A stretch of DNA of 64,000 bases from Candidatus Saccharimonadota bacterium (lineage in GTDB: Bacteria > Patescibacteriota > Saccharimonadia > Saccharimonadales > Saccharimonadaceae), in the NCBI GenBank assembly GCA_017404795.1, contig JAFRBR010000005.1, forward strand, positions 129 to 64,128, in the 5' to 3' direction. The notes below the pieces were generated by a model that did not search any database, was not told the origin of the DNA, and was given only the letters and a program-made list of their open reading frames with translations. The translations under genes were made by a program, and so were the position numbers. This document shows, one piece after another, positions 17,781-33,417 of this stretch (within the stretch, counting starts at the first letter, position 1; each line of letters opens with the position of its first letter).

Positions 17781-17867
17781 GGGCGAGTGGCGGAACTGGT
17801 AGACGCGCTAGACTCAAAATCTTGTGGCCTTCGGGCCGTGAGGGTTCAAGTCCCTCCTCGCCCACCA
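17781..17867 (+). tRNA. tRNA-Leu(CAA)
   Basis: Acceptor GGGCGAG/CTCGCCC, anticodon loop CTCAAAA, long variable arm, encoded CCA. Confidence 0.97.
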
Positions 17868-18000: not shown

Positions 18001-18122
18001 TTGACATTTAATACAAAGTATGCTATAATGAAGATATTAAGCAAAAGTTTTATTGCTTCGTAATATTATCAATCTGTTAGTTGTTTAGGCAACCGGGCTT
18101 AAAGCCCAGAAAGGAGTCAGCT
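18001..18122 (+). promoter_or_regulatory. Cassette A promoter and conserved leader
   Basis: TTGACA(18001)-N17-TATAAT(18024); TAAGCAAAAGTTTTATTGCTTCGTAA; hairpin GGGCT-TAA-AGCCC directly before AGAAAGGAG. Homologous to 32804-32946. Confidence 0.85.
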
Positions 18123-18671
18123 ATGCTGACCGTCACCCCTAGTGCACGCGTATCCAAACTCGAGCAGAAGGTTAAGGCCTTCGGAAAGCAAATTGCCACA
18201 GACGATCATCCTATGCCCGTCACCGTCAAGTCCTTCCCCTCGGTGTATTTCGAGGAGGATAGCTACGAAGGTCAAAACTACCCATTACTGAAGACCGAGT
18301 ACCGGACTTCGGACGGGGTTCATGGCTGTTCTGGCTTCACGCTGGACGAAATCCTCTGTCGTAATGCCGGAGACCTAACTGGGCGCACTTCCTGTGCATT
18401 CCTGAACGATCATTGCGCCATCCCCTATTGGCCTACCGTACACGAACTTCATGATCATATCATTGAAGTGGCGGAAAACTGGGAAAGCTGGGGACAAGGC
18501 GACTTCGGCGCGATGGTTTTCTCAGTCTTTATGGTAGAGGAACACACCGCCGACTGCTTGCGTGGCGTCTTGCGCAGATACCAGTATACCACCCACGAAG
18601 GACATCGGTTCCGTCATCATGAGACTGTTGATGAGGAGGTCATCATCCTCCTCCACCCCAACGACCGCTAG
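18123..18671 (+). CDS. Hypothetical protein (cassette A cargo), His/Cys-rich
   Basis: Strong SD before ATG 18123; no recognised family. Confidence 0.75.
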   Translation: MLTVTPSARVSKLEQKVKAFGKQIATDDHPMPVTVKSFPSVYFEEDSYEGQNYPLLKTEYRTSDGVHGCSGFTLDEILCRNAGDLTGRTSCAFLNDHCAIPYWPTVHELHDHIIEVAENWESWGQGDFGAMVFSVFMVEEHTADCLRGVLRRYQYTTHEGHRFRHHETVDEEVIILLHPNDR

Positions 18672-18690
18672 ATTAAAAAGGAGGCGCCAG

Positions 18691-18705
18691 ATGCCCTGGC
18701 CCTAA
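18691..18705 (+). CDS. Micro-ORF MPWP*
   Basis: AAAGGAGG (18677-18684), 6-nt spacer, ATG CCC TGG CCC TAA. Confidence 0.5.
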   Translation: MPWP

Positions 18706-18717
18706 AAGCAACTAAGC

Positions 18718-18814
18718 AGAAAAACACCCGAAGCTGGCGCCCCTGCGCCCCGCCTCGGTGGTACCCCGAGGTCGGCTTAGCGCTTCTTTGCGTCCCTACC
18801 CTCGGGGTTTTTCT
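18718..18814. repeat. 97-nt structured repeat, copy A
   Basis: Ends GAAAAACACCCGA / CTCGGGGTTTTTC, inner CCTCGG-tggtac-CCCGAGG; highly similar to 33235-33330. Confidence 0.9.
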
Positions 18815-18824
18815 TTCCCTACCC

Positions 18825-19229
18825 CTATCTATTATGATTCCAGTAAACAACCGCACCGACAAGGCTGGCAATCGTCATCATGCTACCAACCGCTACCAGC
18901 AAAATGTCGTTTTGATAGGAATTAATCGTAGCGGTGAAATTGATTTTGTCATAAAGGAACATCGTGTGGTCTCTTTGGCTGGTCGCCTCTTCGGTCCCGT
19001 TCAGCACGCACGGATAAGTATCCTGAATCACGGTTCCGTCGTTTTTTTCGTATAATTCTTCGTCAAAACAAAGCGCCGGAGCATCCGAAATCCCAATCAA
19101 ATTTTTCCTAAACTTAGCCAGCTCATTCACCCCGCAAAAAGTAATCACGCCAAACATTATCGCCATCAAAATCAGCAGCCCCGCGTTAATCTTGACTCTC
19201 GTGGAAGTTTTGTTGTTTTTTGTTGCCAT
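18825..19229 (-). CDS. Hypothetical membrane protein (2 TM)
   Basis: Two hydrophobic segments flanking a Cys-pair loop; AGGAG SD. Confidence 0.75.
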   Translation of the reverse strand: MATKNNKTSTRVKINAGLLILMAIMFGVITFCGVNELAKFRKNLIGISDAPALCFDEELYEKNDGTVIQDTYPCVLNGTEEATSQRDHTMFLYDKINFTATINSYQNDILLVAVGSMMTIASLVGAVVYWNHNR

Positions 19230-19303
19230 GTTCTCTCCTTTTGGGCTTTTGCCCGATTAATCCTTAGCTACATTATAGCATAAAGGTCAAGCTTACCTTC
19301 TCG

Positions 19304-21070
19304 CTATTTCTCTTCCAAAAAAGCTCCGCTCTGTCGTGACCAGAGCTTGGCATATTCCCCGCCGGCCTTTAATAGCTCCTGATGTGAACCTCGCTCCACA
19401 ATCAAACCGTTCTTCAGTACTATAATTTCATCTAATCCTGCGATTGTCGATAGCCGATGCGCTACCACAATGGAAGTCCGGTCTTTCATCAAATTTGCCA
19501 AAGCCCCCTGGATTAACCCTTCTGATTCCGAATCTAGCGCCGAGGTGGCCTCGTCTAGTACTAGTATCGGTGCATCTTTCAGAATCGCCCGGGCTATTGC
19601 CACCCGCTGTCTCTGACCACCAGACAATTTTACTCCTCGTTCGCCGACCAAGGTATCATAGCCATCCGGCAGCTCTTTAATAAATTCATCGGCATTAGCC
19701 AGCTTCGCTGCCTGCAGCACCTCCTCGCGCGTCGCATTTATCTTTCCATAAGAAATATTTTCGTAAATTGAACGATGAAACAGCGAAGATTCTTGAGGTA
19801 CATAAGCAATCGCTTCGCGCAAGCTTTTCTGGGTCACGTCGCGGATGTCTTTCCCGTCAATATAAATCGCCCCCTTCATTACATCATCAAACCTCAGTAG
19901 CAGTTTTGTTAATGTAGTTTTTCCTGACCCCGACACTCCAACCAGCCCAACACTCTTCCCGGCCGGCACATCTAGACTAAAATCATTGAACAGTGGTTCT
20001 TTTTGTTCGTTGTGTTTAAAGGTAATATGGGCAATTTCAATTTTAGCTTGAGCGATTTTCAAAGGCTGGTCAGTCTTATCGTCGACAATCAGCGGCAAAT
20101 CTAGTATCCCCACCATTTCTTTAGCGTTCCCTAGCGACCGATTGACGGATCTAAGGATGTGGTTAATCGTCCACACATTCGAAAGTAGCGAATTGGACAA
20201 AGAATACAAGAACACCATATTTGCAATAGTCAGCCCAAACCAATCATGGCTCATAATTATCAAAATTAGAAGTCCTGCAAAAGTCACCAGATTTATCGAA
20301 TTCATTGATAGATTCCGCCAAAACGACACTTTGGCCGCTCGGAAGGTCGCTTGTTTAGTCTGCTTAGTGGCCCCACTGAATCGAGTTTCTTCTAAATCTT
20401 CGCGAGCGTAGGACTTCACCGACATTTCGTTTGTAATCGCGTCCGCTAGTTGTCCAGTCTGCTTGTTCTCGGCATCCGCCAACGCTTCATCTACTTTACG
20501 CGTTTTATAATAAGTGGTTATTGCTACTACCATATATATTACTGTGTATATCGCCAAAATTCCCGCAAAAGGTGCACAAACTATCGCCGTTACTCCAATC
20601 GAATAAAACGCCGTCAATATCAATGGGTAAAGATCCCACACAAAATTAGATTTCAGGCTAATAAACGCCCCAGGCAATTTGTTGGCCGCGCTCGTCAGTG
20701 ACCCAGAGAATTTATCATTATGAAAAGTCATTGACTGGTTTATCACCGCCGTAAAAGCCAGTTTTGACAAATATTCTCCACCCAGCGCATCCAGCGACCA
20801 ATCTAGCCAGTCGATCGACCGAAGCACCACCAAATTATTTGCCGCCGCTGACAAAATAGTCAGTAGTAATATACTGGTATAATTCGCGATTTCAAAATCT
20901 CCGTCCGATAGCTTACCGATAATTTCCGAAGTACCATATGGCACCACCACATTTGATAAGAAAATCCAAACTGGAACTAATGCTAACAGCAAGATCGTCC
21001 TAATTTTGTGTTGCATTAGTGTCTGCCAAAAGTAATGCAGAGTCCGCTTGATATTTTTAGATTGTGCCAT
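19304..21070 (-). CDS. ABC transporter permease/ATP-binding protein (MdlB/MsbA-like)
   Basis: 6-TM domain, GVSGSGKT, LSGGQRQR, LVLDEATSALD. Confidence 0.95.
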   Translation of the reverse strand: MAQSKNIKRTLHYFWQTLMQHKIRTILLLALVPVWIFLSNVVVPYGTSEIIGKLSDGDFEIANYTSILLLTILSAAANNLVVLRSIDWLDWSLDALGGEYLSKLAFTAVINQSMTFHNDKFSGSLTSAANKLPGAFISLKSNFVWDLYPLILTAFYSIGVTAIVCAPFAGILAIYTVIYMVVAITTYYKTRKVDEALADAENKQTGQLADAITNEMSVKSYAREDLEETRFSGATKQTKQATFRAAKVSFWRNLSMNSINLVTFAGLLILIIMSHDWFGLTIANMVFLYSLSNSLLSNVWTINHILRSVNRSLGNAKEMVGILDLPLIVDDKTDQPLKIAQAKIEIAHITFKHNEQKEPLFNDFSLDVPAGKSVGLVGVSGSGKTTLTKLLLRFDDVMKGAIYIDGKDIRDVTQKSLREAIAYVPQESSLFHRSIYENISYGKINATREEVLQAAKLANADEFIKELPDGYDTLVGERGVKLSGGQRQRVAIARAILKDAPILVLDEATSALDSESEGLIQGALANLMKDRTSIVVAHRLSTIAGLDEIIVLKNGLIVERGSHQELLKAGGEYAKLWSRQSGAFLEEK

Positions 21071-21088
21071 GCTTATATTATGGCACGA

Positions 21089-22054
21089 TTATTTATCCCA
21101 GTCAAACCCTTCGCCGTAATGGCCCCACATAGCAGTTTTTTCGTAAATCGGCCGTCGCAAATCCAAAAACTTAATAATCCCCGCCGGTGTCAAATCGTAC
21201 CCCTCGATTTCTTCAGGTTTACTATCAATTAACACGGTCTTTTCCAGAGGTTCCGCGTAGCCAATGGCGTAGGCTAGCCGCACCAAGACTTCGTGCGCTT
21301 TGCGCTCCCGCAAATAATCCACCGCGATTTTGCGCGCCATGTAAGCGGCTGAGCGGTCTACCTTTGTCGCATCCTTACCAGAATAGCAGCCCCCGCCAAT
21401 CGCCACTCGTGGCCCGTAGTTGTCCACGATTAATTTGCGACCAGTCAGGCCGGTGTCGGCGTCAAATCCACCTTGGTTCCAATCGCCAGCAGGGTTGATA
21501 TGGAGCTCTAACTTGCCAGCCAGTTTTTTATTTTTGACAAATTCTTGTACCAATTTTGCTAGTTCGTCATGAGGCACATTTTGAAAACTTGCCACCACCG
21601 AATCCACAGAGCCATCCGGCGCCAAGGTTATTTGAGTCTTGCCATCATATGGGTGTTTATCAAAAATAAACTGATTCAGCCGCCGCGCCAAAATCACTTC
21701 CAGCGGCAACATCTCGTCGGTCTCGTCGCAGGCGTAGCCAATCATGATTCCTTGGTCGCCGGCGCCGCCCGTGTCTACGCCTTGGGCAATCTCTGGTGAC
21801 TGCTTGACGATTTTAGTGTGGACTTCTGCGTCATCACCAGCAATCCGTTTAACGATTGCCGGAATATCCATCTCGTCGGCCGTTGAAGTGACCTCGCCAG
21901 TCACAAATACCACTCCGTGCCCGCCACAAGTCTCTACCGCCACACGCGCCATCGGGTCGGTAGCTAAATACGCGTCCAAAATCGCATCGCTAATCTGGTC
22001 GCAAAGTTTATCTGGGTGTTTTGGAGAAACGCTCTCCGCCGTTCGATAGAACAT
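21089..22054 (-). CDS. metK: S-adenosylmethionine synthetase
   Basis: TAESVSPKHPDKLCDQISDA, GAGDQG, DGKTQ, GLTGRKLIVDNYG, SGKDATKVDRSAAY; true start MFYR at 22054. Confidence 0.97.
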   Translation of the reverse strand: MFYRTAESVSPKHPDKLCDQISDAILDAYLATDPMARVAVETCGGHGVVFVTGEVTSTADEMDIPAIVKRIAGDDAEVHTKIVKQSPEIAQGVDTGGAGDQGIMIGYACDETDEMLPLEVILARRLNQFIFDKHPYDGKTQITLAPDGSVDSVVASFQNVPHDELAKLVQEFVKNKKLAGKLELHINPAGDWNQGGFDADTGLTGRKLIVDNYGPRVAIGGGCYSGKDATKVDRSAAYMARKIAVDYLRERKAHEVLVRLAYAIGYAEPLEKTVLIDSKPEEIEGYDLTPAGIIKFLDLRRPIYEKTAMWGHYGEGFDWDK

Positions 22055-22143
22055 ATCTTTCCTTTCTTGGTCGGATTTACCACCTTGGTTTTCACTAGGT
22101 TGGCAGGGGGTCACCGGGCCGTTCCCTCACCCCTTCTTGATAT
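22053..22143 (-). ncRNA. SAM-I riboswitch aptamer upstream of metK
   Basis: AUAUCAAGA..GGGGUGAGGGAACGGCCCGGUGACCCC..GCCAACC..GGUGGUAAAUCC..AAAGAUAU aligns element by element with the SAM-I consensus (UUAUCAAGA, GAGGGAnnGGCCCGnUGA, GCAACC/GGUGC, AAUUCC, AAAGAU). Confidence 0.9.
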
Positions 22144-22160
22144 TAATATCCCCATTATAA

Positions 22161-22781
22161 CTATTTTTTGGATTTTTTACCAGCTTTTTTCCGAGTTGCC
22201 GACTTCCGCGCCACCGACCGAGCGGTCTTGTCTTCAATCCCCTGCGCACGGTTGTGCGCGCCATAAATCATACTCGTCACCCCCACAATCAGCATATACA
22301 CACCAAAGAAGCGCATGAAGGTCATCATCTCAAACCCACCCGCGTTCAAAATCACCAGGCCAATCACACAGCCAGCTGCCCCCGCCAAAATCCGGATAAA
22401 CCGATCGGTCGGGTCCACCGTCGACAAAAACCCATGAAAAATATCAATCACCCCAGACAGAATCGTGTAAACCGAAATAATCACCACTCCTAGTACCAAA
22501 TTGTTCTTAGCAAAGAAGAGTAGCGCCACCGCCGCTATTACATCAATCAACGCATCGATAATCGAATTAATCCAGCCGTGCTTCTTGGTCGACGCATAAA
22601 GCGCGCCCACCGCATCCACAATCCCCATCGACAGTAGAAAAACACTCGCCAGTGCAACAATATTGTCTACTTCCGTCATCCCGCTAAACAAAATCACACA
22701 ACCAAAGGCGATTGCTAGCCCCCCGCGGATTAAAAACATTAACCAATGTTTGTCAATATATTTTCGATTTATCTTTGCCAT
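22161..22781 (-). CDS. HdeD/DUF308 family membrane protein
   Basis: W.MFLIRGGLAIAFG start, ~6 TMs, basic tail. Confidence 0.75.
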   Translation of the reverse strand: MAKINRKYIDKHWLMFLIRGGLAIAFGCVILFSGMTEVDNIVALASVFLLSMGIVDAVGALYASTKKHGWINSIIDALIDVIAAVALLFFAKNNLVLGVVIISVYTILSGVIDIFHGFLSTVDPTDRFIRILAGAAGCVIGLVILNAGGFEMMTFMRFFGVYMLIVGVTSMIYGAHNRAQGIEDKTARSVARKSATRKKAGKKSKK

Positions 22782-22919
22782 AAAAATCCTTTATTACTTA
22801 TGCTCATTATAGCACAAATTTTATGTCATTTTCAAAAATTATGCTATAATCAAAGTGCAACGATTTTATAATTTACGTGTACCGAGATTTTAATATCGAT
22901 ACGCAATACGAATTTAAAG

Positions 22920-23054
22920 ATGGCACCACAAGGTGATCCGAATTCAGCGTCCAGAAAGAATATGGATTATAGATATTTTAGCGCCACTACTACGGGTGGA
23001 GGCAGCAATGATAGATTTAGAGGTCTTACAGCTCGTTGCATCGCTGATAATTAA
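22920..23054 (+). pseudogene. Remnant 3' end of a FISUMP/CLec-type gene
   Basis: Reads ...SASRKNMDYRYFSATTTGGGSNDRFRGLTARCIADN*, alignable to the tail at 1-295; an orphan TGCTATAAT promoter lies at 22842-22850. Confidence 0.5.
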
Positions 23055-23056
23055 CT

Positions 23057-24271
23057 CTACACCCGCCGAATCCTCTTCCGCGCCGATTCAATTAACTTAG
23101 TTTTTTGATAAATTAGTGGCTTCAAGATCAGATCATGCGCCGGAGTATAGCGGAGCTCTTCACAGCCGAACGAACGCTTGAATTCGGAAACCCCATAGAA
23201 CCGATGGGTCGTCTCCTCCGGCTCCACTATCCCCCACAGATTATAGCGGATGCAGCCTCGCTCCCTAGCCTCCTTCATCGCCGCCATGTGGAGTAGCGGC
23301 GCCGCCGAATACTTTGTCCCCAGCTCCGACGATACTCCGTAATGATAGCTCGCTTCCGGCCCATAAAAAATCATAAAATTCTGCGCCAAAACTTCCCCGT
23401 CCTTCTTCGCAGTGTAGATTAACACCTCTCCGCCCTCGCGGAAGGCTTCAAATTGCTTGCGCAGGAAATCACTCGAAAACGCCACATATTTTTGTCGCTC
23501 AGCGTGCAATTTTTCTAATCGGCAAAATTCGTCAATCGCCTGATCACTAGTCTCGGCCGCAATTTCGATTTCGTTCTTTTCGGCTTTGCGTAGTTTGCGT
23601 CGGAAACCTTGCGACGCTCCGGCCAGAATCTCTTCCTCCGACTTCCGCAAATCCAGTACTCCAGCAAACTCCACCGATAGATACATTGGTGCTCGCTTCA
23701 GGCCTAGCTCCCGCATTAGCGCCAAAGATTTATCTGATAGCTCCAGCTGCGGCCGTACTCGCACAAACACACAGCCAGTCTCTAAACCTTGCGCCTCGAT
23801 ATCGTCAAACACTGCCTTTACCGCCTTATCGTCCTCCCAGTCCATAATCGGCCCACCGGCAATCGCCAAGTATTTGCCCCGCTTAGCCGTTTCCACTACC
23901 CCAGCATACGCCGCCACAATTTTATTATCCTCATCTGTCAGTGCTCTTCGAACTATCTTTTTCCCTCGCGCCTTATGGAACTCGTAAAAATCCCACGACT
24001 GCAAGAAATTCGCCTCAGGATGCGAAGTAATAAACCGGTCCCAAGTAGAACGATTGTCGATATTAGTAAGGCAAAGTGTTTTATCGCAATCGAGGGGATT
24101 TCGGAGCGCGGCAGCGCGAGAGTTAGCGCGCGAGCCCCGTGGCGGACTGCCGGAGGAGTCGAGCGAAGAACGAACTAGTTCGTTCTTCCGAGATGACAAC
24201 TGGCAGACGACATCAGTCGACGGGCGCGAGCGACGCGACCCGAGATGCGATGAAACACTTTGCCTATTCAC
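23057..24271 (-). CDS. FemAB/FemX family peptidyltransferase with a 65-aa N-terminal in-frame insertion
   Basis: FLQSW.F, GGP..DW, FRRKLRKA, YHYG.S, YNLWG, FKRSFG motifs; GTG start overlaps the upstream TGA. Confidence 0.9.
   Translation of the reverse strand: MNRQSVSSHLGSRRSRPSTDVVCQLSSRKNELVRSSLDSSGSPPRGSRANSRAAALRNPLDCDKTLCLTNIDNRSTWDRFITSHPEANFLQSWDFYEFHKARGKKIVRRALTDEDNKIVAAYAGVVETAKRGKYLAIAGGPIMDWEDDKAVKAVFDDIEAQGLETGCVFVRVRPQLELSDKSLALMRELGLKRAPMYLSVEFAGVLDLRKSEEEILAGASQGFRRKLRKAEKNEIEIAAETSDQAIDEFCRLEKLHAERQKYVAFSSDFLRKQFEAFREGGEVLIYTAKKDGEVLAQNFMIFYGPEASYHYGVSSELGTKYSAAPLLHMAAMKEARERGCIRYNLWGIVEPEETTHRFYGVSEFKRSFGCEELRYTPAHDLILKPLIYQKTKLIESARKRIRRV
24070..24264. repeat. In-frame palindromic element (195 nt) in femAB
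   Basis: Arms GGCAAAGTGTTTTATCGCA / TGCGATGAAACACTTTGCC; cores GCGAGCCCCGT and GACGGGCGCGAGCG; inner perfect palindrome GAAGAACGAACTAGTTCGTTCTTC. Confidence 0.9.
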
Positions 24272-25284
24272 AATCGCCTCCGTTTCTTCCGGACCTTTTC
24301 TACTACTAAGTCTTTTAGGTATCCCACGCGCGAAATTACTAGGTCGTGGGCTGGTACGTATTCTACCACCGAGCCCCCAAACCCCGTCTTAAAGGTCGTC
24401 ACCCCAGCATAGCGGTGCCCCGGCTGCCCAGCCGGTGCAATCCCCCAGAGGTTAAATCGCTCATACCCCTCGGCCTTCAAATCCCGCATCGCCTGCCAGA
24501 GCAAAGCATACGCCCCAGGGAGTTTGCGATTCAAATCGGTCGAGGCCGCCTCGTAATAATCTCCTTCGCGCCCATCCTTTATTATCAGGCCATAAGCCAC
24601 AGGTTCTCCCTCGGCTGTTCGCGCCACATAAATCGCAAAATTGTCCCCAAAAGCTTCCCTTTCTGCCAGCAATACCTCTAGTGACGGCGGCACAAACCCC
24701 TGTCGCCGCGCCGTCTCCATCTGTACCTGGTGGAATTCGCGCAAAATCTCCTCCGAATCATCCCGCTCTACCGTAATCCCCAGTTTACCCGCTCGGCGCA
24801 CCTCGTAGCGAGTCTGTCGTCGCATTCCAGCCAGTAATTCTTCCTCGGATAAACTGAGATCTATCATCACTGTGTGCTCGGCCGCTAGGTGCATCGGTGA
24901 TTTTTTCAGCCCCATTCGTTCCAAAACCTCCAAATTCTCGCGGTTAGCCAGAAGTTGTGGCCTCAGTCGCACAAACACACATTTTTCCTTCTCCGCCACC
25001 TCAGTAATCCGGCTCATCACTTCTTTCACTAGCCCTTTATCACCCCAGTCAATCAGTGGCCCACAAGGAATCTCCAGATAGCGTCCTCGCTTGGCATTGC
25101 GCACTACCATTATCGCCCACCCCTTACCGCCAAAATCTTCACTCACCACCTTGGCCCCCATCAGCTCATTCATCCGCCCATAAGCCGGCGACTGCAAGAA
25201 GTTCGCCTCAGGGAATTCCTCAATTGCCTCTCGCCACCCCGCCTCTGTGATCGTGAATTTGGCTGCCTTATTGTTATTTTTCAC
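24268..25284 (-). CDS. FemAB/FemX family peptidyltransferase
   Basis: FLQSP.Y, CGP..DW, MRRQTRYEVRRA, FNLWG, FKTGFGG motifs. Confidence 0.92.
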   Translation of the reverse strand: MKNNNKAAKFTITEAGWREAIEEFPEANFLQSPAYGRMNELMGAKVVSEDFGGKGWAIMVVRNAKRGRYLEIPCGPLIDWGDKGLVKEVMSRITEVAEKEKCVFVRLRPQLLANRENLEVLERMGLKKSPMHLAAEHTVMIDLSLSEEELLAGMRRQTRYEVRRAGKLGITVERDDSEEILREFHQVQMETARRQGFVPPSLEVLLAEREAFGDNFAIYVARTAEGEPVAYGLIIKDGREGDYYEAASTDLNRKLPGAYALLWQAMRDLKAEGYERFNLWGIAPAGQPGHRYAGVTTFKTGFGGSVVEYVPAHDLVISRVGYLKDLVVEKVRKKRRRL

Positions 25285-26491: not shown

Positions 26492-27252
26492 TAGATTACT
26501 CCCTCCTTTTTTGGCGCAGGTTTCTTGAAAGTAGCTTTTGTATTCTTATCATTTTCGTTCTTGGCTTCGGGCTCCTTTTTCATCCTCTCTATCAATATAC
26601 CAATAGCTCGGGCCAGCCCCTCTGGATCCGAAATATATGGCGCATGGGTCCAATTAGCATAGAACTTCAGTTCTGCATTGGGTAATTTCTCATACATCTC
26701 TGTAGCCTGCCGAGGTGGCGTGGTAGTGTCCTTCTTGCCCCAGAGGATAAAGGTCCTTGTTTCTACCTTGGTAAGGTCTAATTCTTTATCTGATTCCAGC
26801 ATATTAGCCAAAGTTTTCTTCATATTCTCTGGCGCCTTGGAATAATCTGTAGACCCCGTCACACGGTGGAAACCCTTGTCTACTAGAGGTATTTTTTTCA
26901 GTGGCTGTCCAATTTTGGCTAGTTTTTCCACTATTTTCTTGCGCATTGACGGCTCATACACCCCCGCCGAATCCAGCAAAATCAAATATTTCAGCTTCCC
27001 TGATTTCTGAGCACAGAGGTTCAGCAAAATCCGGCCCCCGTTACTATGCCCTAGTGCCACCGCTCCGTCAGGGATTTCTCTGTCAGCCCACTTCATATAG
27101 TCATAGATTGTCCACTCCTTCTTTGACTCCTCTGTTAGCCCCGGCACATGCAGCATTTTGACGCTAATCCCCTTGTCGCGCAACAGTGAAATCGTTTCCT
27201 TCCACGGCTCCACCGTGTAAGTCCACCCATGAATTATGTACAAATCCGCCAC
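26491..27252 (-). CDS. Alpha/beta hydrolase
   Basis: IHGW, GHSNGG nucleophile elbow, LWGKKD, WTHAP. Confidence 0.92.
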   Translation of the reverse strand: MADLYIIHGWTYTVEPWKETISLLRDKGISVKMLHVPGLTEESKKEWTIYDYMKWADREIPDGAVALGHSNGGRILLNLCAQKSGKLKYLILLDSAGVYEPSMRKKIVEKLAKIGQPLKKIPLVDKGFHRVTGSTDYSKAPENMKKTLANMLESDKELDLTKVETRTFILWGKKDTTTPPRQATEMYEKLPNAELKFYANWTHAPYISDPEGLARAIGILIERMKKEPEAKNENDKNTKATFKKPAPKKEGVI

Positions 27253-27268
27253 TAAAAACCTCCTTTCA

Positions 27269-28537
27269 TCAATCTAACCCCCAACTTTTACGTCTAGCTA
27301 CCGCGGCCTTTTCTCGCCGGCATAATTTGTCCGCATCAGAGGGGTCGGCTAGTAGCTTCTCGACCACCCATTCTAGATATTGGCTCCCCTTAAAAATCAA
27401 AGTCTCCGTTCCTCTAACATTCTTCTTGATATATTCCAAGGCTTTCCTGGGGTCAGTCGTTGCCACCGCCGAAATACCCAGTTTCTTTAGTTCCGGTGCC
27501 GTGTACTCCTTAGTCCGCCGCCCTACTAGCACTACTTTGTCCGGTTTTACTCTGGCAATCAAATCCGCCAACCGCCGATGCTCCTCCTCCGCTAGCGACC
27601 CCTGATCGACAATATCCCCAATCACCAGCCACTTTTTCTCTGCGTGCATCCTTTTCGCCATATCTAGGGTCGAAGCCATGCTAATCATGTGCGCATTGTA
27701 GCTACAATCCACAATATCTATCCCCTTATACCCCTTAAAATGCGAACTTCGCCCCGGCGCCACTTCCATCCCGGTGAAATCAGGATTAAACTTTAGTTTC
27801 AGATATTTCATCAAATCCTGCAACACGAACAGATTGAACGCCACGTCCTTTGGCTCTGGTCGGTCAAAATGAAAAGTCGTATCCCCATAGGTAAAATCAG
27901 TCGAATCAGGGTAAACTACGTATTTTTTCATCTCCGTCTTCTTGATTGGAATCACTTGAGCCTTGACTCCCTTGGTCGCCTCTACCATCAACCTAGAATC
28001 TGCATCGATATACACTCGCTTGCTCGTATTGGCTGGCAAATTAGCAAATTCTGCTGTAATCGCCTCTGATAAATCTTTGAATTTACCTTCTTCCACCACT
28101 CTTTCAAACTGCACCGCATGGGATAAACCTATCGATACCCAAATCGTCACCTCTGGGCGCAGCCACTCTGCCAGGAATTCCGCCTCGTGCGGGCGTTCAC
28201 CGTCAATCTCTACCACGTAGTACCTCTGTTTATGGCGTTTAATCAGCCCCTTAATCGGCGCCATGATAAACAGATAAATCCAGCGCAGTTTAGACCCAGT
28301 CACCCCCTTTAGCCCTAGCAAATCAAACGAAATTCCAAAAGCACTATTAGCATTATGTGAATAATGCGCCTTATCCCCCATTTCAAACTCGATCATGTTC
28401 AGCATCGTAGTCTTACCAGCCGAGCCCGTCACCGCTACTGTTCGCGGATTCCACCTCTTATACACTCGATTCGCAAAATGCCGAAAATACTTCGCCGCAA
28501 CAAAGTAAAACCGTTTCTTGTAACTAGAAACACTCAT
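27269..28537 (-). CDS. murF: MurF-like Mur ligase (lacks the usual N-terminal domain)
   Basis: VAVTGSAGKTT, DCSYNA, VIGDIVDQG, FKGSQ correspond to MurF motifs. Confidence 0.75.
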   Translation of the reverse strand: MSVSSYKKRFYFVAAKYFRHFANRVYKRWNPRTVAVTGSAGKTTMLNMIEFEMGDKAHYSHNANSAFGISFDLLGLKGVTGSKLRWIYLFIMAPIKGLIKRHKQRYYVVEIDGERPHEAEFLAEWLRPEVTIWVSIGLSHAVQFERVVEEGKFKDLSEAITAEFANLPANTSKRVYIDADSRLMVEATKGVKAQVIPIKKTEMKKYVVYPDSTDFTYGDTTFHFDRPEPKDVAFNLFVLQDLMKYLKLKFNPDFTGMEVAPGRSSHFKGYKGIDIVDCSYNAHMISMASTLDMAKRMHAEKKWLVIGDIVDQGSLAEEEHRRLADLIARVKPDKVVLVGRRTKEYTAPELKKLGISAVATTDPRKALEYIKKNVRGTETLIFKGSQYLEWVVEKLLADPSDADKLCRREKAAVARRKSWGLD

Positions 28538-28585
28538 ACTCTCTATTATACCTTATTTATGCGTAAATTCTTAGAAAAAATCCGC

Positions 28586-28774
28586 CAGATTGGTATTTTC
28601 TCCGAGTGAAGCGCGTCTATTGGACGAGCGAAATTCCGAAAAAGGTGAGATGTGTAGTTGTCGTAATTTGCCAATTAAAATCGCACAGATTGCCTTTTGA
28701 GGAATTGAAGCGCGTCTATTGGACGAGCGAAATTCCGAAAAAGGTGAGATGTGCGATTTTAATGGCAAATTTAC
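28586..28774. repeat. Tandem intergenic palindromic elements downstream of rpsJ
   Basis: Identical 48-mer at 28607-28654 and 28706-28753; 25-nt inverted arms at 28663-28687 / 28750-28774. Confidence 0.9.
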
Positions 28775-29100
28775 ATGCGGATTTCGGCGTCTACGCCAGC
28801 CGGGAGGGATAGGTTTTGCAAGCTCTCGATCGTCTTCGGTGTAGCATTAGAGATATCAATCAGCCGTTTATGGACTTTCATTTCAAACGCTTCCCCGCCA
28901 GTCTTATAGACGTGAGGTGACTTAACCACGGTAAAAGTAGACCGCTTGGTCGGCAGAGGAATCGGCCCCGAAACGCTTGCCCCAGTCCGAATTGCCGTGT
29001 CCACAATCTGTCGAGCACTCTGGTCAATTACTCGGTGATCGTAAGCCTTCAGCCGAATCCGAATGGTCAGCCCAGTATCTTTTTCTTTTTTATCTGCCAT
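28771..29100 (-). CDS. rpsJ: 30S ribosomal protein S10
   Basis: [33 protein letters not shown]. Confidence 0.98.
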
Positions 29101-29311
29101 AATTTGTTGTCCTTTCTGCTCTATAACCTCAGGTTCGCCCCTAGACAGGCCGCCGGTGAGTAGTTAGAGCTAGATAATTAATTTACTTGTAGCCCCATTA
29201 TACCACACTCTGCCAAAAATGCAAATCAAGCCCCCAAGTTGACAAAAACGCTCCCCAGTGGTATAATTGAGTCAACTATTGGGCAGTCTATAATTGAGGA
29301 AGGAGATTACT

Positions 29312-29833
29312 ATGCCCACGCACGTTACAGATGCAAGTACGTCCAAGTATCCAGTAGAGCAATTAAAGCCCTATTATAAGGCTTTGCTTTACATGGCTGA
29401 GTTGCCAAAGTATTGGGTTGCGTACGACTACCGGCTCGAAGAGTTTTTTGACAAGGGCCACCCGATCATTTCCAGTCAACCACAAGAATTCAAGGATTTT
29501 TGCGAGGCCTATGAGATGGTCTGTCGGGCCTCTGCCAGGCTTGACATTGAGCAGGGACTCAACTACCGCATGTTGCGCGCTCTCGCTCGCAATCTGTACT
29601 ACGGTGGAGCTCGTCGGAGTTTTTACATTAGATATTTGGAGGGGCAAATCGACCAACTCTCCAAAATCTCCGAGCCCGTAACTATTGTCGGAATCGAAGA
29701 AAGGTACCAATACTACATTTATCGGAAGGAGCGTAATCACAAAGGTCTTGGTATTGGCCCCAACTTTGAGACTTGGAAACAAGAGGGCGGCTGCCCCGTC
29801 ACTTTCTACAGCATCATGTCTTACCGAAAGTAG
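29312..29833 (+). CDS. Hypothetical protein (Tyr-rich orphan)
   Basis: Own TTGACA-N17-TATAAT promoter and AGGAG SD; no recognised motif. Confidence 0.7.
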   Translation: MPTHVTDASTSKYPVEQLKPYYKALLYMAELPKYWVAYDYRLEEFFDKGHPIISSQPQEFKDFCEAYEMVCRASARLDIEQGLNYRMLRALARNLYYGGARRSFYIRYLEGQIDQLSKISEPVTIVGIEERYQYYIYRKERNHKGLGIGPNFETWKQEGGCPVTFYSIMSYRK

Positions 29834-29876
29834 ACTCAAGTCCAACCAGTATTAAAAGCGTCTTAACTTGCATCAA

Positions 29877-29903
29877 AAAGCCACCCTCATGTAGGGTGGC
29901 TTT
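29877..29903. terminator. Bidirectional terminator between the orphan gene and tuf
   Basis: AAAGCCACCCT / AGGGTGGCTTT. Confidence 0.85.
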
Positions 29904-29915
29904 CTCAGGCTCAAA

Positions 29916-31100
29916 TTATTTGATAACCTTGGTGATGACACCAGAACCAACGGTCTTACCGCCTTCGCGGATCGCGAAGCGGTCGTTGTCGTTCATCGCG
30001 ACTGGCTGGAGCAATTTGACCTTGAAGGTCACTTGGTCACCAGGCATCACGATTTCCTTGTCGGCTGGTAGCTCTACCTCACCCGTCACATCAGTGGTAC
30101 GGAAGTAGAACTGAGGCTTATAGCCCTTGGAGAACGGAGTGTGGCGGCCGCCTTCTTCCTTCTTCAAGATGTAAACCTCTGCCTCAAACTCGGTATGCGG
30201 AGTAATCGTGCCTGGCTTGGCAATCACCTGACCACGCTCGATTTGGTCGCGTTCAATACCACGGAGCAAGAGACCTGCGTTATCGCCAGCTTGGCCCTGA
30301 TCCAAAGTCTTGTGGAAGGCCTCAATACCGGTCACTACGGACTTTTGAGTGTCTTTCAGACCAACAATCTCAACTTCGTCGTTTAGCTTGATCACACCCT
30401 GCTCGATACGACCAGTAGCCACGGTCCCACGGCCTTTAATTGAGAACACGTCCTCAATTGGCATTAGGAACGGCTTGTCAAGATCGTGCTCAGGTACTTC
30501 AAAGTATTCATCCATCGCCTTGACGAGCTCCATCACTGCGTCTTCGTTTTCTTTGTCACCCTCAAGAGCCTTAGTAGCGGAACCCTTGATGATTGGCGCA
30601 TTGTCGCCATCAAAGCCGTACTTGTTCAAAAGCTCACGGACGTCCATTTCTACTAGTTCTACTAGTTCAGGATCAGCGAGGTCCATTTTGTTCAAAAATA
30701 CGATGATTTTTGGTACGTTTACCTGGTGAGCCAAAAGTACGTGCTCACGAGTTTGTGGCAACGGGCCATCATTAGCAGCTACCACGAGGATAGCGCCATC
30801 TACCTGGGCAGCACCGGTAATCATGTTTTTGATGTAGTCGGCGTGGCCTGGCATGTCAACGTGCGCATAGTGGCGCTTGTCGGACTCATACTCCTGGTGT
30901 GAAGTCGCGATAGTAATACCGCGGGCCTTTTCCTCAGGCGCGTTATCAATTTGATCATAAGCGACAGGCTTGTTAACATCCGAAGGTAGGCGATCAGCCA
31001 ACACCTTGGTGATAGCAGCCGTCAAAGTGGTTTTTCCATGGTCTACGTGACCCATGGTGCCAACATTGATATGTGGCTTGGAACGGTCAAAATTTGCCAT
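29916..31100 (-). CDS. tuf: Elongation factor Tu
   Basis: [34 protein letters not shown]. Confidence 0.99.
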
Positions 31101-31444
31101 TCTTTCTCCTTTTTATTAATTACGGTTGGAGCGCTAATAAAAACCAGCTCCAAGACTCTACCCTCTTATTTTAGACTATTTTTGGCAAATTGTAAAGAGG
31201 CTATTTTGTTATTTTAAAAAAACTTCATTCTGACTAAAAAATCCTCGGTTACTTAGAACCGGGGACGGGTCCGCTAAATCCCTCAATTGAGACCAAATAT
31301 TACACATATCTTGACAAAATAAACCTTTTGTGCTAAAATTAGAAGACAAATTGGCAAGGGGCAATTTAAGCACATTAATATTGGATTCTAGGTAGAAAGG
31401 CATATTAGTCTAGGCAAAGAACAGAGAGATAAGGTGGTAATGAA

Positions 31445-32095
31445 ATGAGCAATGTAATTGAATTTAAGGTGGTGAGCAGTCGGCAGAAAACGCACAATAA
31501 TCGTAATGTTGTCAAGACTATTCAGATTCCGCGCAAAGAGGTAATGGTCTGCGCAAGTCCAATTCAAGTAGAACGAGTTGGCTGGAATATGATTTCAATC
31601 GGCTTTTGGCTGGATTGTTTCGAGCCGAATCTCGTTGACCTTGCTATGAGGCAAGTTTGCCATGCACAGTATGAGCTCTACAAGGTTGGACGCGATAATC
31701 CAAGCTACGAGCCCATGCGGTCGACGTTCATCGTGCGAGTAGTTGGGGATTATTCCCTTTCTGAGACGGACGAAATCCTTACTCAGATTGCGGCCCTGTC
31801 GGCCAAAGAGGCCTATTTGAAAGAAATCAGCATGCGAGGCAGCAAGGTGGATGTGTCCGAACTTGCAACCCCCTACGCGGCCGATCCTTTTAACGGTTCG
31901 ATCGTCAATCGCAAAACTGTGGCTATTTTGCGAAGAGCCGGTATTCAAAACGCTTACGAAGTGGCAAAAAACACTCGCGAGACGATCTGCCAGCTTCCTG
32001 GTATAACCACGAAGGAGGTATACAAGCTCGAAAAAAGCTTAGCTGCAAGAGGAATCTATCTCAACGCAGCCGCGGTGCCAAGTTGGAGCGAATGA
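31445..32095 (+). CDS. Hypothetical protein with C-terminal RNA polymerase alpha-CTD-like (HhH) domain
   Basis: C-terminal ..AILRRAGIQNAYEVAK..ETICQLPGITTKEV..LEKSLAARGIYL resembles alpha-CTD. Confidence 0.65.
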   Translation: MSNVIEFKVVSSRQKTHNNRNVVKTIQIPRKEVMVCASPIQVERVGWNMISIGFWLDCFEPNLVDLAMRQVCHAQYELYKVGRDNPSYEPMRSTFIVRVVGDYSLSETDEILTQIAALSAKEAYLKEISMRGSKVDVSELATPYAADPFNGSIVNRKTVAILRRAGIQNAYEVAKNTRETICQLPGITTKEVYKLEKSLAARGIYLNAAAVPSWSE

Positions 32096-32113
32096 CCTCA
32101 CCCAGAATCACAA

Positions 32114-32140
32114 AAAGGCCGTCCCGCAGGGACGGCCTTT
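32114..32140. terminator. Bidirectional terminator
   Basis: AAAGGCCGTCCC-GCA-GGGACGGCCTTT. Confidence 0.85.
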
Positions 32141-32152
32141 AATTATGCAAAA

Positions 32153-32695
32153 TTATTCGCCGGGGGTTGCGTCAACGGATCCGGTCTCAGTGCTGGTCTC
32201 AATAGATGTGCCTTTTTCTTGCTCATTAGCATCAGCCTGAGTGGTCGCTGGCTGAGTTTCAAGCCTTTCTGTGCCACGGAGAGCGGTTTCGCCCGCTTTT
32301 TTGTTGCGATTAACTTCACTCTTTTGGCGTAACATCTGTGCCATGTTTTCAAATACGTCAGCCAATTCGCGATCGATGTAACTGGCCTGCTCGTACGTAT
32401 CAAAGCCAGATTCCATAAAATTAGGGTCATGTCGACGATCTACGGCTTCATCAACATTATTAAAATGCCCACGCTCCTCATCGAGTTCATCTAGAAAAGC
32501 ATTTACTTCTTGGGTTTCTGGGCTATTATTAACAGGGGTAATTTCCGCACGTACCTCTGGTTTTTGAGGCTCTTCGCGGCGAAATCCGTCTGCCTCGATA
32601 CCAGCATATTCTTGGTCTAGCGCACTGTCGCTCATCCTCTTCGCGTTGGGGTTTGTCAAGGCTTCATCGACATTGTTCAATCCTTCTCTATTCAT
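32153..32695 (-). CDS. Acidic hypothetical protein
   Basis: GGAG SD before ATG 32695; E/D-rich, internal NNVDEA duplication. Confidence 0.7.
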   Translation of the reverse strand: MNREGLNNVDEALTNPNAKRMSDSALDQEYAGIEADGFRREEPQKPEVRAEITPVNNSPETQEVNAFLDELDEERGHFNNVDEAVDRRHDPNFMESGFDTYEQASYIDRELADVFENMAQMLRQKSEVNRNKKAGETALRGTERLETQPATTQADANEQEKGTSIETSTETGSVDATPGE

Positions 32696-32803
32696 AAGTA
32701 TTATCTCCATTAAATTGTTATTGCCCTTATTATAACACATTTTCTATAATGAGAACCATTAACTCAATGGACTTGTAAAAAGAAAGATTTTATATAAAAC
32801 CCA

Positions 32804-32946
32804 TTGACAAAAATAACTATGTGTGCTATAATATAAACAATAAGCAAGAGTTTTACTGCTTAGTAAATTAAGAACCAATTTAGTTGTGAGTTGTGAGTTG
32901 TGTTTCATTCCGGGTTGGACCAGGAGGTCCAGAAAGGAGGCCATCT
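32804..32946 (+). promoter_or_regulatory. Cassette B promoter and conserved leader
   Basis: TTGACA(32804)-N17-TATAAT(32827); TAAGCAAGAGTTTTACTGCTTAGTAA; hairpin GGACC-AGGA-GGTCC directly before AGAAAGGAGG. Confidence 0.85.
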
Positions 32947-33087
32947 ATGGCCACGCAGAAGAAGGACGTCTTCGAGACTTCGTATAAGAACCGTCAGGAA
33001 ATGCAGCGCGATGTGCTGCGGCTCGCCGCCGACAAGGGCTGGCGAACGATTCAGGCGAAGGGTGAACAGATGATCATCCGCCGCTAG
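32947..33087 (+). CDS. 46-aa small protein (cassette B cargo)
   Basis: AGAAAGGAGG SD then ATG: MATQKKDVFETSYKNRQEMQRDVLRLAADKGWRTIQAKGEQMIIRR. Confidence 0.7.
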   Translation: MATQKKDVFETSYKNRQEMQRDVLRLAADKGWRTIQAKGEQMIIRR

Positions 33088-33123
33088 CCCGCCCCTGCAG
33101 ACGGACCATGAAAGGAGTGGCCA

Positions 33124-33141
33124 ATGAAGACTTGGCCTTGA
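33124..33141 (+). CDS. Micro-ORF MKTWP*
   Basis: AAAGGAG (33111-33117), 6-nt spacer, ATG AAG ACT TGG CCT TGA. Confidence 0.45.
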   Translation: MKTWP

Positions 33142-33179
33142 CGCTGCAAAAATCGTAAATGAAAGGAGGTGCCCAAACT

Positions 33180-33194
33180 ATGTTTTGGCCTTAG
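33180..33194 (+). CDS. Micro-ORF MFWP*
   Basis: AAAGGAGGT (33162-33170), 9-nt spacer, ATG TTT TGG CCT TAG. Confidence 0.5.
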   Translation: MFWP

Positions 33195-33234
33195 CTCACG
33201 CGGGTAACGCCCGCGCCCCATACAACTGAATATT

Positions 33235-33330
33235 GGAAAAACACCCGAGGTCGGCGCCCTGCGCCCCGCCTCGGCGGTACCCCGAGGTCGGCTTGCGCAC
33301 TCTAGCGCCCCTTACCCTCGGGGTTTTTCT
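33235..33330. repeat. 97-nt structured repeat, copy B
   Basis: Homologous to 18718-18814, with the stems preserved. Confidence 0.9.
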
Positions 33331-33417
33331 TACCTCAAAAAACAAAAGAAACCCCCCGGTCGATTGACCGGGGGTGCTTGAGCCACCCAAGAGAGTCCAT
33401 AAAGGCTCAAAGAGGTT

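Follow-up and report, generated by a model that had tools for sequence, protein, structure and literature searches.

Introduction

In the hok/sok (fbi-tac) and Helicobacter AapA1/IsoA1 systems, pairing between the 5' and 3' parts of the messenger RNA (mRNA) locks a stable, inert form, and a small extra frame takes part in the control. TnaC relies on an essential Trp and on a Pro-stop end, trpL is a leader-peptide attenuator, and termination is slow after a C-terminal Pro. Hairpins close to the 5' end or strong Shine-Dalgarno (SD) sequences serve as mRNA stabilisers, as known for ompA, aprE, ermC and the STAB-SD of cryIIIA. Phage morons and the minimal mobile elements of Neisseria are promoter-gene-terminator units of deviating G+C content, found in variable islands and exchanged via conserved flanks. 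In Pseudomonas aeruginosa, the RNA toxin CreT, composed of an SD, a 15-nucleotide (nt) mini-open reading frame (mini-ORF) ending in Pro-Pro-stop and a GC-rich hairpin, arrests translation, and all three parts are needed for the arrest (bioRxiv 10.64898/2026.06.02.729485). Here, we analyse a 64,000-nt stretch of DNA from a Candidatus Saccharimonadota bacterium (contig JAFRBR010000005.1, positions 129 to 64,128; hereafter the window), in which two cassettes, A and B, frame unrelated protein-coding genes (hereafter cargos) with the same upstream and downstream sequences, including a mini-ORF that ends in Trp-Pro-stop.

Sequence comparisons indicate that the cassette design is real, undescribed and modular, and its function we infer. 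We hold with high confidence that RNA-level control modules are common to swapped cargos. Our preferred reading, to which we assign a probability of about 0.45, is that each cassette is one transcription unit made of two portable RNA modules around an exchangeable ORF, with a translation-gated clamp of the mRNA ends. All statements on structure and translation are computational, and the independent lineages are few.

Two cassettes with the same parts in the same order

The initial annotation had described A and B as copies of one modular cassette, and direct reading confirmed that they share all the parts it listed, in the same order and far above chance (Table 1). A 26-mer located 9 nt past the promoter is identical at 23 of 26 positions between the two loci (18038-18063 and 32841-32866), which are its sole matches in the window at up to three mismatches, while none is expected from shuffled sequences. 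The SD AGAAAGGAG upstream of the cargos occurs just twice in the 64 kb, at 18108 and 32931. Similarly, no SD-led ORF of up to six codons is present on the + strand of the window apart from the three mini-ORFs with a Trp-Pro-stop end (MPWP, MKTWP and MFWP). The 3' elements are identical at 87 of 100 positions, including 37 of the 38 nt of a core, with a chance expectation of 0. The cargos themselves are unrelated as claimed, with 24% identity in a forced global nucleotide alignment.

Other parts of the description needed qualification. The promoters are present at A and B as stated, but they are of a generic type, with 10 such sites in the window. The CCGGG motif is found in both cassettes, but it is not conserved across the family and merely flanks the hairpin that abuts the SD. 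As to their context, a tRNA-Leu(CAA) gene does precede A, and fusA and tuf, recognised by their Pfam domains, surround the island that harbours B. Two further matches in the window, at 10381 and 45283-45303, fall within ordinary ORFs and were discarded as chance.

Table 1. Features of cassettes A and B and adjoining genes in the window (UTR, untranslated region; aa, amino acids)
Feature	Position	Strand	Sequence or composition	Remark
tRNA-Leu(CAA)	17781-17867	+		borders cassette A
Promoter, A	18001-18029	+	TTGACA-N17-TATAAT + TGn	direct reading
5'-terminal RNA hairpin, A	18039-18058	+	AAGCAA/UUGCUU	predicted; ~9 nt past the -10 box
Box X, A	18073-18085	+	UCUGUUAGUUGUU	5'UTR half; includes TTAGTTGT of the initial annotation
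Second hairpin against SD, A	18095-18116	+	GGGC-UUAAA-GCCC (18095-18107); SD AGAAAGGAG (18108-18116)	
Cargo A	18123-18671	+	182 aa	no recognisable relatives outside the lineage
Mini-ORF unit, A	18677-18705	+	SD AAAGGAGG (18677-18684); ATG CCC TGG CCC TAA (18691-18705)	MPWP-stop
Box X', A	18707-18720	+	AGCAACUAAGCAGA	3'UTR half; begins 1 nt past the mini-ORF stop
3' element, A	18719-18816	+	four segments, CACCCGARG, GCCUCGGYGG, ACCCCGAGG and CCCUCGGGGU; two small hairpins	A-tract/U-tract flanks
Promoter, B	32804-32832	+	TTGACA-N17-TATAAT + TGn	direct reading
5'-terminal hairpin, B	32842-32861	+		predicted
Box X, B	32875-32902	+	CCAAUUUAGUUGU (32875-32887), then two more GAGTTGT heptamers to 32902	
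Second hairpin against SD, B	32917-32939	+	GGACC-AGGA-GGUCC (32917-32930); SD AGAAAGGAG (32931-32939)	
Cargo B	32947-33087	+	46 aa	hydrophilic, basic; homologues of 44 aa (L017) and 42 aa (L026)
Mini-ORF 1, B	33114-33141	+	SD; ATG AAG ACT TGG CCT TGA (33124-33141)	MKTWP-stop
Mini-ORF 2, B	33162-33194	+	SD AAAGGAGG; ATG TTT TGG CCT TAG (33180-33194)	MFWP-stop
Spacer hairpin, B	33199-33215	+	CGCGGG-UAAC-GCCCGCG	between mini-ORF 2 and X'; B-type cassettes only
Box X', B	33222-33236	+	ACAACUGAAUAUUGG	CCAAU:AUUGG replaces CUGUU:AACAG of the A, C and E types
3' element, B	33236-33332	+		covariance model, 111 bits
Convergent gene	33418-33717	-	99 aa	55% identical to cargo E; ordinary non-cassette context

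A family known from gut Saccharibacteria

Related cassettes were collected on fetched contigs, which are designated by L-numbers (L010, L017, L020, L021, L023, L025, L026, L030 and others). The window and the related metagenome contigs together yielded at least ten distinct full cassettes with four unrelated cargo families (A, B, C and E), all from a narrow, Nanosyncoccus-like clade of gut Saccharibacteria. The leader and the 3' element therefore co-occur beyond A and B, both in these contigs and in one metagenome-assembled genome (MAG). Copy numbers are low, with two or three cassettes per metagenome: the contigs of one run carry two 3' elements (A and B) and those of another run three (A, C and B). 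An exact-protein look-up also placed cargos A and B on ENA gut-metagenome contigs of the same species as the window.

A first scan of the genome collection gave no match, and a second one gave a single match to the generalised DNA pattern among 185,579 species-representative genomes. This match is a Candidatus Nanosyncoccus MAG, syntenic with L017, in which cargo E lies within the same cassette frame directly after tRNA-Leu(TAG). It agrees with an origin of the window from a related Saccharibacterium, as presumed in the initial annotation. In some strains, a third cassette, C, is found directly upstream of B (L010:4087-4700), with a 112-aa cargo and an MHWP mini-ORF. Homologues of cargo A from other species (L017, L020, L021 and L030) have kept the leader, the mini-ORF and the 3' element in differing chromosomal surroundings.

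Searches of Rfam at gathering as well as permissive and E-value thresholds returned nothing relevant for any part of the cassettes. Viral collections gave no true match, the hit in L024 being due to chance, and neither the metagenomes of JGI nor the phage and plasmid collections, the latter searched for both DNA and protein, yielded a match. With the covariance model of the 3' element, neither the window nor those fetched loci that were searched gave an additional copy.

Cargo proteins

The cargo families are mutually unrelated and range from 175 to 182 aa (A), 42 to 46 aa (B), 111 to 112 aa (C) and 96 aa (E). Their sequences are hydrophilic, and their genes have a G+C content of 0.51-0.59, vs 0.47 for the window. 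Cargos A and B match no Pfam family, and searches of PHROGs and PADLOC likewise gave nothing meaningful. A profile search of 1.84 billion representative proteins retrieved just five members of the cargo families. AlphaFold models of cargos A and C have predicted local distance difference test (pLDDT) scores of 60-62 and no significant match in the PDB. A weak match of cargo C to PC4/Sub1-like proteins (E = 0.17) was not trusted.

The gene convergent with cassette B, whose product is related to cargo E (Table 1), is an ordinary gene of the window, and hence cargo families exist outside of the cassette frame as well. It stands behind a gene resembling a lipoprotein gene (33757-34389, - strand).

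Maintained flanks and exchanged cargos

The proposal that the flanks are maintained while the middle is swapped gained support from the family, as the same flanks surround cargo C in strain variants of the species and cargo E in the Nanosyncoccus MAG. Among A-type orthologues, the leaders are 82-87% and the 3'UTRs 85-88% identical, compared with 68-79% for the cargo DNA and 51-73% for the cargo proteins. L023 and L017 have an identity of 88% over the 3' module, vs 71.5% over a neighbouring gene for a 671-aa, RecG-like protein (RecG domains of Pfam in the L017 copy). Cassettes with unrelated cargos (A, C and E) share 80-86% of their 3'UTRs.

Several pairwise comparisons reveal where the homology begins and ends. 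Between the window and L010, it starts 7 nt upstream of the -35 box of B (window 32797), with different genes to the left, and the two B cassettes are 99% identical over the cargo and 97% over the 3'UTR but just 67% over the leader. L010:4557-5312 and L017:10551-11300 are 90.7% identical over a block that runs from the SD of the mini-ORF, past the 3' element, to the end of the HNH_repeat gene convergent with it, and the cargos ahead of this block, C and A, respectively, are unrelated. In another species, C-type and B-type cargos form one transcription unit, each with its own hairpin-plus-SD; a strain variant lacks that B unit, and the short repeat AAACG is located, in our reading of the two sequences, at the junction. 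These patterns show that the cargo is replaced between its ribosome-binding region and the SD of the mini-ORF, for which the simplest route would be homologous recombination via the conserved flanks. On the simplest reading, the incoming cargos would stem from the gene pool of a variable island present at differing chromosomal sites, namely between fusA and tuf or beside tRNA-Leu(CAA) or tRNA-Leu(TAG). Cassette islands also adjoin tRNA-Leu(CAA) in L025 and tRNA-Leu(TAG) in L023 and L017.

Every full cassette has the mini-ORF together with X' and the 3' element, and no mini-ORF is present where the element is missing. Wherever this 3' module was seen, the 5' module accompanied it. Conversely, L025, L026 and the first cassette of L030 have the leader without the 3' element. 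The two ends are thus partly independent of each other, and they are better described as two separable modules than as one indivisible cassette.

The initial annotation had also suggested gene capture. Capture in the integron sense is conjectural; no integrase gene was called in the fetched flanks, and each cassette has its own promoter. We considered a cassette that moves at the DNA level, with X and X' as terminal inverted repeats or recombinase sites and the 3' element as an attC-like folded site. X and X' do form an imperfect 13-bp inverted repeat that brackets the cargo unit, cargos differ between strains and species at the same flanks, the islands adjoin tRNA-Leu genes, and the 3' element, similar in length to attC sites, is imperfectly palindromic. 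Nevertheless, we regard such a cassette as very unlikely. No gene for an integrase (including intI), transposase or invertase was called in the fetched flanks, which extend over 6-10 kb per side where the contigs reach. No attC cores were seen on inspection of the 3' regions, without a pattern search, and no target-site duplication stood out on reading the sequences, without a systematic search. The initial annotation, which saw no attC ends (RYYYAAC/GTTRRRY), did not recognise the cassettes as integron cassettes, as miniature inverted-repeat transposable elements or as a toxin-antitoxin family. With its view on the transposable elements, the imperfect X/X' repeat, the two to three copies per metagenome and the lack of further matches to the covariance model agree. 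The swap junctions map to the ribosome-binding region of the cargo and to the SD of the mini-ORF rather than to X and X'. Finally, contigs from four DNA runs contain no inversion or deletion joints within cassette A, although contigs hide rare variants.

Another explanation is that the flanks are generic good expression signals copied together with genes by duplication and gene conversion, in which case X:X' pairing and the mini-ORF would have no dedicated function. The generic promoter type, the low copy number, the island genes common to several loci, the occurrence of the 5' module with ordinary terminators and the terminator-like character of the 3' element on both strands speak for it, as does the established role of 5' hairpins and of strong SDs in stabilising mRNAs. 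We nonetheless deem it unlikely, first because the non-coding flanks are more conserved than both the cargo DNA and a neighbouring housekeeping-type gene; other features that it leaves unexplained are given below.

The 216-aa and 195-aa genes to the left of B (window 31445-32740) belong to island families that recur, rearranged, at L017:8603-9707 and L010:2431-3093. The content is thus shared at differing chromosomal positions, i.e., between fusA and tuf or beside tRNA-Leu(TAG). The strain-variable part of the fusA-tuf island includes, at L010:162-2095 (- strand), a 400-aa HTH_3/Bro-N gene along with a gene that weakly matches the RNA-polymerase alpha-CTD, and a 144-aa HNH_repeat gene is found at L010:4760-5194 (- strand). 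These genes hint at a phage or mobile-element origin. A diversity-generating retroelement or a retron was rejected, as the copies do not differ specifically at adenines and none of the neighbouring genes was recognised as a reverse transcriptase gene.

The 5' module

The initial annotation had noted an AAGCA-N10-TGCTT repeat within the 26-mer. Structure predictions indicate that this repeat is an RNA hairpin at, or adjoining, the 5' end of the transcript. The hairpin is predicted in all 12 cassettes, with a loop of 3 to 10 nt. Its variants comprise two G.U pairs in E, a double change from A-U to G-C in L030A and, in L030C, a wholly different stem of 12 bp. We also considered that AAGCAA/TTGCTT might be the operator of a dimeric repressor. 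This was ruled out, because a dimeric protein operator would not tolerate such variation: the spacer is 5, 7 or 8 nt long, pairing is kept via G.U, and one stem is wholly different.

Farther downstream, the second hairpin abuts a consensus SD in 11 of 13 units, and it is built on three different stems (GGGC/GCCC, GGACC/GGUCC and GUCUC/GAGAC). In gut metagenome runs X1-X4, a contig of a more abundant organism matches the first 41 nt of cassette A (window 18001-18041) with four differences and diverges at the hairpin, which indicates that the promoter sequence is more widely shared than the leader.

A predicted helix between the 5' and 3' UTRs

The conserved leader motif TTAGTTGT is predicted to be one half of a 13-15 bp helix, X:X', that links the 5' and 3' UTRs across the cargo. 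In A, the helix comprises 13 pairs, of which one or two are G.U depending on the register, with a mean pair probability of 0.81 in the 778-nt transcript. More generally, X:X' is part of the minimum-energy fold of all nine full-length transcripts folded, with a span of ~330-640 nt and mean pair probabilities of 0.65-0.96. The helix is made up of UCUGUU-AGUUGUU and AACAACU-A-AACAGA in the A, C and E types. In the B types, CCAAU-UUAGUUGU pairs with ACAACUGA-AU-AUUGG, i.e., an entire arm is replaced on both strands. Duplexes between X and X' of the same type have energies of -12.0 to -18.7 kcal/mol, vs -4.6 to -9.2 kcal/mol for mismatched types (X of A or C with X' of B, or the reverse), E being intermediate. 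Box X has drifted in L025 and L026, where the 3' module is missing. The joint change of X and X' between types is not what one would expect of generic expression signals.

Non-Watson-Crick positions in X:X' amount, by hand tally of the sequences, to about seven G.U and a single C.A. In L030A, an inserted U provides a partner for an A that the other cassettes leave bulged. Both observations favour RNA pairing over a DNA inverted repeat: read on the + strand, nearly all mismatches are G.T, A.C occurring once, an asymmetry expected of RNA pairing, which adds to the case against a cassette moving at the DNA level.

The leader of B harbours three tandem [T/G]AGTTGT heptamers (window 32880-32902), each of which could pair with the ACAACU of X'. 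The B versions of L010 and L017 have one copy of the heptamer.

The Trp-Pro-stop mini-ORF

The 11 alleles of the mini-ORF all conform to ATG-x(x)-TGG-CCY-stop, with invariant ATG, TGG and CC of the Pro codon. Variation is limited to codon 2 (Pro, His, Phe, Thr, or Lys-Thr), to third positions (CCC/CCT, ACT/ACG and CAC/CAT) and to the stop codon (TAA, TAG or TGA). The Pro codons used, CCC and CCT only, are the two rarer ones of this genome. Such a substitution pattern is that of a translated frame, and we therefore predict that the mini-ORF is translated. That the frame, ATG, Trp, Pro and stop were kept through 11 alleles also goes against flanks made of generic signals only. The stop is 1-6 nt away from X' in the A, C and E types. 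In five of the six A- and C-type cassettes, the predicted probability that the SD of the mini-ORF is unpaired is 0.03-0.13 in the full-length RNA, compared with 0.18-0.72 in the isolated 3' fragment.

The most interesting rival explanation arises from these features. The 3' module might be a CreT-like RNA toxin or addiction element whose highly translated Trp-Pro-stop mini-ORF would trap ribosomes or peptidyl-tRNA-Pro in trans, with leader pairing (X:X' and its extension over the mini-ORF) as the antidote; the GC-rich element would protect the RNA, and decay in the 5'-to-3' direction that strips the leader is one way in which the toxin might be released. The architecture matches that necessary and sufficient for CreT of P. 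aeruginosa (SD, ATG-x-Pro-Pro-stop, GC-rich hairpin), and six-codon CreT toxins that sequester tRNA also exist (PMC8501985). The mini-ORFs of A, C and E are exactly 15 nt long, B carries the mini-ORF twice, the mini-ORF strictly co-occurs with a stable element, its SD is predicted to be more exposed in the isolated 3' fragment than in the full-length RNA of the A and C types, and the cassettes are located in variable, mobile-element-like islands. On the other side, there is a single Pro after Trp instead of two consecutive Pro or rare codons, and neither a CRISPR array in the window, nor a cas gene among the called neighbours, nor a creA-like partner was seen. Furthermore, the mini-ORF always lies behind a protein-coding cargo under a strong, constitutive-looking promoter, predicted masking is weak in the B and E types, and toxicity itself is a conjecture drawn from the analogy. 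On balance, we consider a CreT-like toxin quite unlikely.

The 3' element

The initial annotation had described a structured element of 97 nt as a near-identical hairpin ending in a T-tract. The near-identity and the T-tract stand, but the element is not a simple hairpin: it comprises four segments with two alternative folds. Its folding z-scores are -3.8 and -4.8 in A and B. The first fold is a four-way junction (segment 1 with 4 and 2 with 3), the second consists of tandem hairpins (1 with 2 and 3 with 4), and the two are mutually exclusive, with each of them 98% paired across 11 sequences. A stem precedes the U-tract in both folds. The reverse strand can likewise fold, and a U-tract closes it too, such that the element is, according to the models, terminator-like on either strand. 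In L030A, the A-tract and the U-tract are each two nt shorter. A sequence bound to satisfy two structures is expected to be near-frozen, as the 3' element is. A terminator as such needs neither 87% primary-sequence identity nor two competing folds, which is a last point against generic signals.

Two other structural ideas were rejected for the cassettes. They contain no tRNA mimic, as ARAGORN finds just three true tRNAs and there is no tRNA-type cloverleaf. Dimerization by a kissing interaction of the palindromic GGUACC loop is not tenable either, since the loop reads AGAUACU in L030A and CAGUACC in L021A.

The neighbourhood of a short ORF and alternative folds also brings to mind an attenuator of the leader-peptide type at the 3' end, in which translation of M-x-W-P, or stalling on it, would select the fold and control antisense read-through into the convergent neighbour, possibly depending on the supply of Trp or Pro. 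Beyond the Trp codon, the four mutually complementary segments and the U-tract, this reading can draw on the convergent gene that follows in most contexts (the window, L010, L017, L020 and L021) and on the reliance of Saccharibacteria on their hosts for amino acids. However, a stem precedes the U-tract whichever fold is adopted, with no evident anti-terminator state, and segment 1 lies ~24 nt past the stop, beyond the reach of a terminating ribosome. In addition, the genes downstream in L023 are on the same strand with their own start signals, and the convergent gene in B and C has its own terminator beyond the element. We hold this reading to be the least probable of those weighed.

Proposed mechanism

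In the scheme that we favour, the 5' module consists of a strong sigma-70-type promoter, a 5'-end hairpin, box X and a second hairpin against a perfect SD, and the 3' module of one or two SD-led M-x-W-P-stop mini-ORFs, box X' and a very GC-rich, four-segment terminator with two folds. The structured ends and the X:X' clamp would give a long-lived, closed message. The mini-ORF would be a landing site for ribosomes, with slow termination at Trp-Pro-stop. In the A, C and E types, a ribosome at the stop would sit over X' and hold the clamp open, and the clamp would close when translation ceases. Ribosome availability might therefore switch the message between a closed form, stored and with a masked mini-ORF, and an open form that is translated or degradable. 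The output would be cargo translation, mRNA life-time, or both. The requirement for two folds would explain the near-frozen sequence of the terminator. Our confidence in the clamp mechanism itself is moderate to low.

A number of observations weigh against this scheme. The transcription start, the 3' end, the translation of the mini-ORF and the clamp are all model-based predictions. The UGGC of the mini-ORF is predicted to pair with a GCCA located between its own SD and the AUG, such that the AUG falls into a loop, and the conservation of Trp-Pro may thus be partly structural. The B types have a spacer of 27-30 nt, with a hairpin of its own, between the last mini-ORF and X', so that a terminating ribosome could not cover X' there. 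In the B and E types, no masking of the mini-ORF SD of the kind found in A and C is predicted in the full-length RNA. The covariation of X:X' comes down to one arm replacement between two clades and a few wobble changes, i.e., to few independent events. For the 3' element, one double change in 29 pairs does not allow a choice between the two folds, and with covariation near zero its structure rests on energy and conservation. Lastly, since the 5' module also occurs alone and works with ordinary terminators, the 3' module is dispensable for expression.

A related possibility, which we find doubtful, is that the cassettes represent an undescribed single-transcript switch, in which a ribosome-arresting mini-gene in the 3'UTR would be silenced by pairing with the 5'UTR. 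It would amount to a self-antidoted RNA toxin or to a gate that responds to ribosome availability and keeps messages dormant in a closed form, and it would be portable between unrelated accessory genes of these ultra-small, epibiotic bacteria.

If confirmed, the translation-gated clamp would represent a natural case of end-to-end mRNA communication in bacteria, reused as a portable set of parts, and M-x-W-P-stop would be a new, very short arrest motif akin in form to the mini-ORF RNA toxins. Saccharibacteria are uncultivated and have tiny genomes, with almost no characterised regulatory RNA. The four lineage-restricted protein families are evidently worth such elaborate expression. The set of promoter, leader, SD and terminator might also serve as a ready-made native expression cassette for genetics in these bacteria.

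Other features of the window and of the related contigs

An ORF-less, GC-rich stretch of ~780 nt is found next to cassettes at L017:11925-12724 (corresponding to L018:8985-9790 and L019:4262-5067), at L020:4274-5064 and at L021:1696-2067, where it is cut by the contig end. It is not present in the window and has no match in Rfam. In L017, its promoter is the same as that of cassette B at 28 of 29 positions (96.6%), and it ends with a hairpin and a T-tract. Identities between species are 85% and 78%, with conserved blocks and variable hairpins. Closed by an 11-bp helix (ACUUUGCACUA/UAGUGCAAAGU) and with a folding z-score of -8.3 (20 shuffles), the stretch is a candidate for a large structured RNA.

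L010:29-92, which borders the strain-variable island, matches the DUF3800-IX RNA of Rfam (54.7 bits), and a DUF3800 gene is found in the island of another species (L020:71-703, - strand).

In the window itself, an S-adenosylmethionine (SAM) riboswitch (S-box, 61 bits) is located at 22050-22146 (- strand), directly upstream of the S-adenosylmethionine synthetase gene, and extends with its 3' end up to the likely start region of that gene. The spacer between a Mur-ligase gene and rpsJ contains a perfect 48-nt direct repeat (28607-28654 and 28706-28753, 99 nt apart). Two copies of the 30-nt, GC-rich sequence TCGCTCGCGCCCGTCGTYACGGGGCTCGCT, 97% identical, are found 9.9 kb apart at 39530-39559 and 49407-49436.

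Comparison with known systems

The cassettes resemble several described systems piecewise and fail the defining features of each of them; that they form a new class is a minority reading. For the 3' module, mini-ORF RNA toxins of the CreT type come closest among known systems. As in CreT of P. aeruginosa and Halobacterium hubeiense (PMC8501985), an SD precedes an ORF, 15 nt or six codons long, that ends in Pro-stop and is followed by a GC-rich hairpin. The end is Trp-Pro-stop here vs Pro-Pro-stop or consecutive rare codons in CreT, and the mini-ORF is found in the 3'UTR of a protein-coding message rather than in a free-standing small RNA. Moreover, it is linked to a box predicted to pair with its own 5'UTR, and neither a CreA guide or CRISPR-like repeats in the window nor cas domains among the neighbours were found.

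With hok/sok and AapA1/IsoA1, the cassettes share the 5'-3' fold-back, given that X:X' is predicted in nine of nine transcripts. However, type I toxins are small and hydrophobic, in contrast with the hydrophilic cargos of 42-182 aa, and type I systems include an antisense RNA gene, none of which was identified for the cassettes. Unlike in type I toxin mRNAs, X and X' are internal boxes and not the extreme ends, and four unrelated cargos share the device.

The trpL and TnaC leaders likewise combine alternative hairpins and a U-tract with an adjoining short, translated ORF that contains Trp and has Pro-stop at its C-terminal end. Here, by contrast, the unit comes after the gene, its four to five codons are too short to fill the exit tunnel in the way TnaC does, and both folds terminate.

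With integron cassettes, the similarity lies in the interchangeable ORFs and the conserved, structured 3' element of ~100 nt. They differ in that every full cassette described here has its own promoter (TTGACA-N17-TATAAT), there are no arrays, and the junctions fit homologous recombination. The unit structure and the G+C shift recall morons, and the island neighbours include Bro-N/HTH_3 and HNH_repeat genes. The flanks, however, are the UTRs of the cassettes themselves and are more constrained than the genes, with no phage structural genes nearby and no matches in the phage and viral collections.

Finally, the 5' module is reminiscent of mRNA stabilisers and of STAB-SD, with a hairpin just a few nt away from the 5' end and a perfect SD, GAAAGGAGG, that may serve beyond initiation. 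What sets the cassettes apart from them is that these parts come together with a mini-ORF and a putative 5'-3' clamp, and that unrelated genes make use of the whole set.

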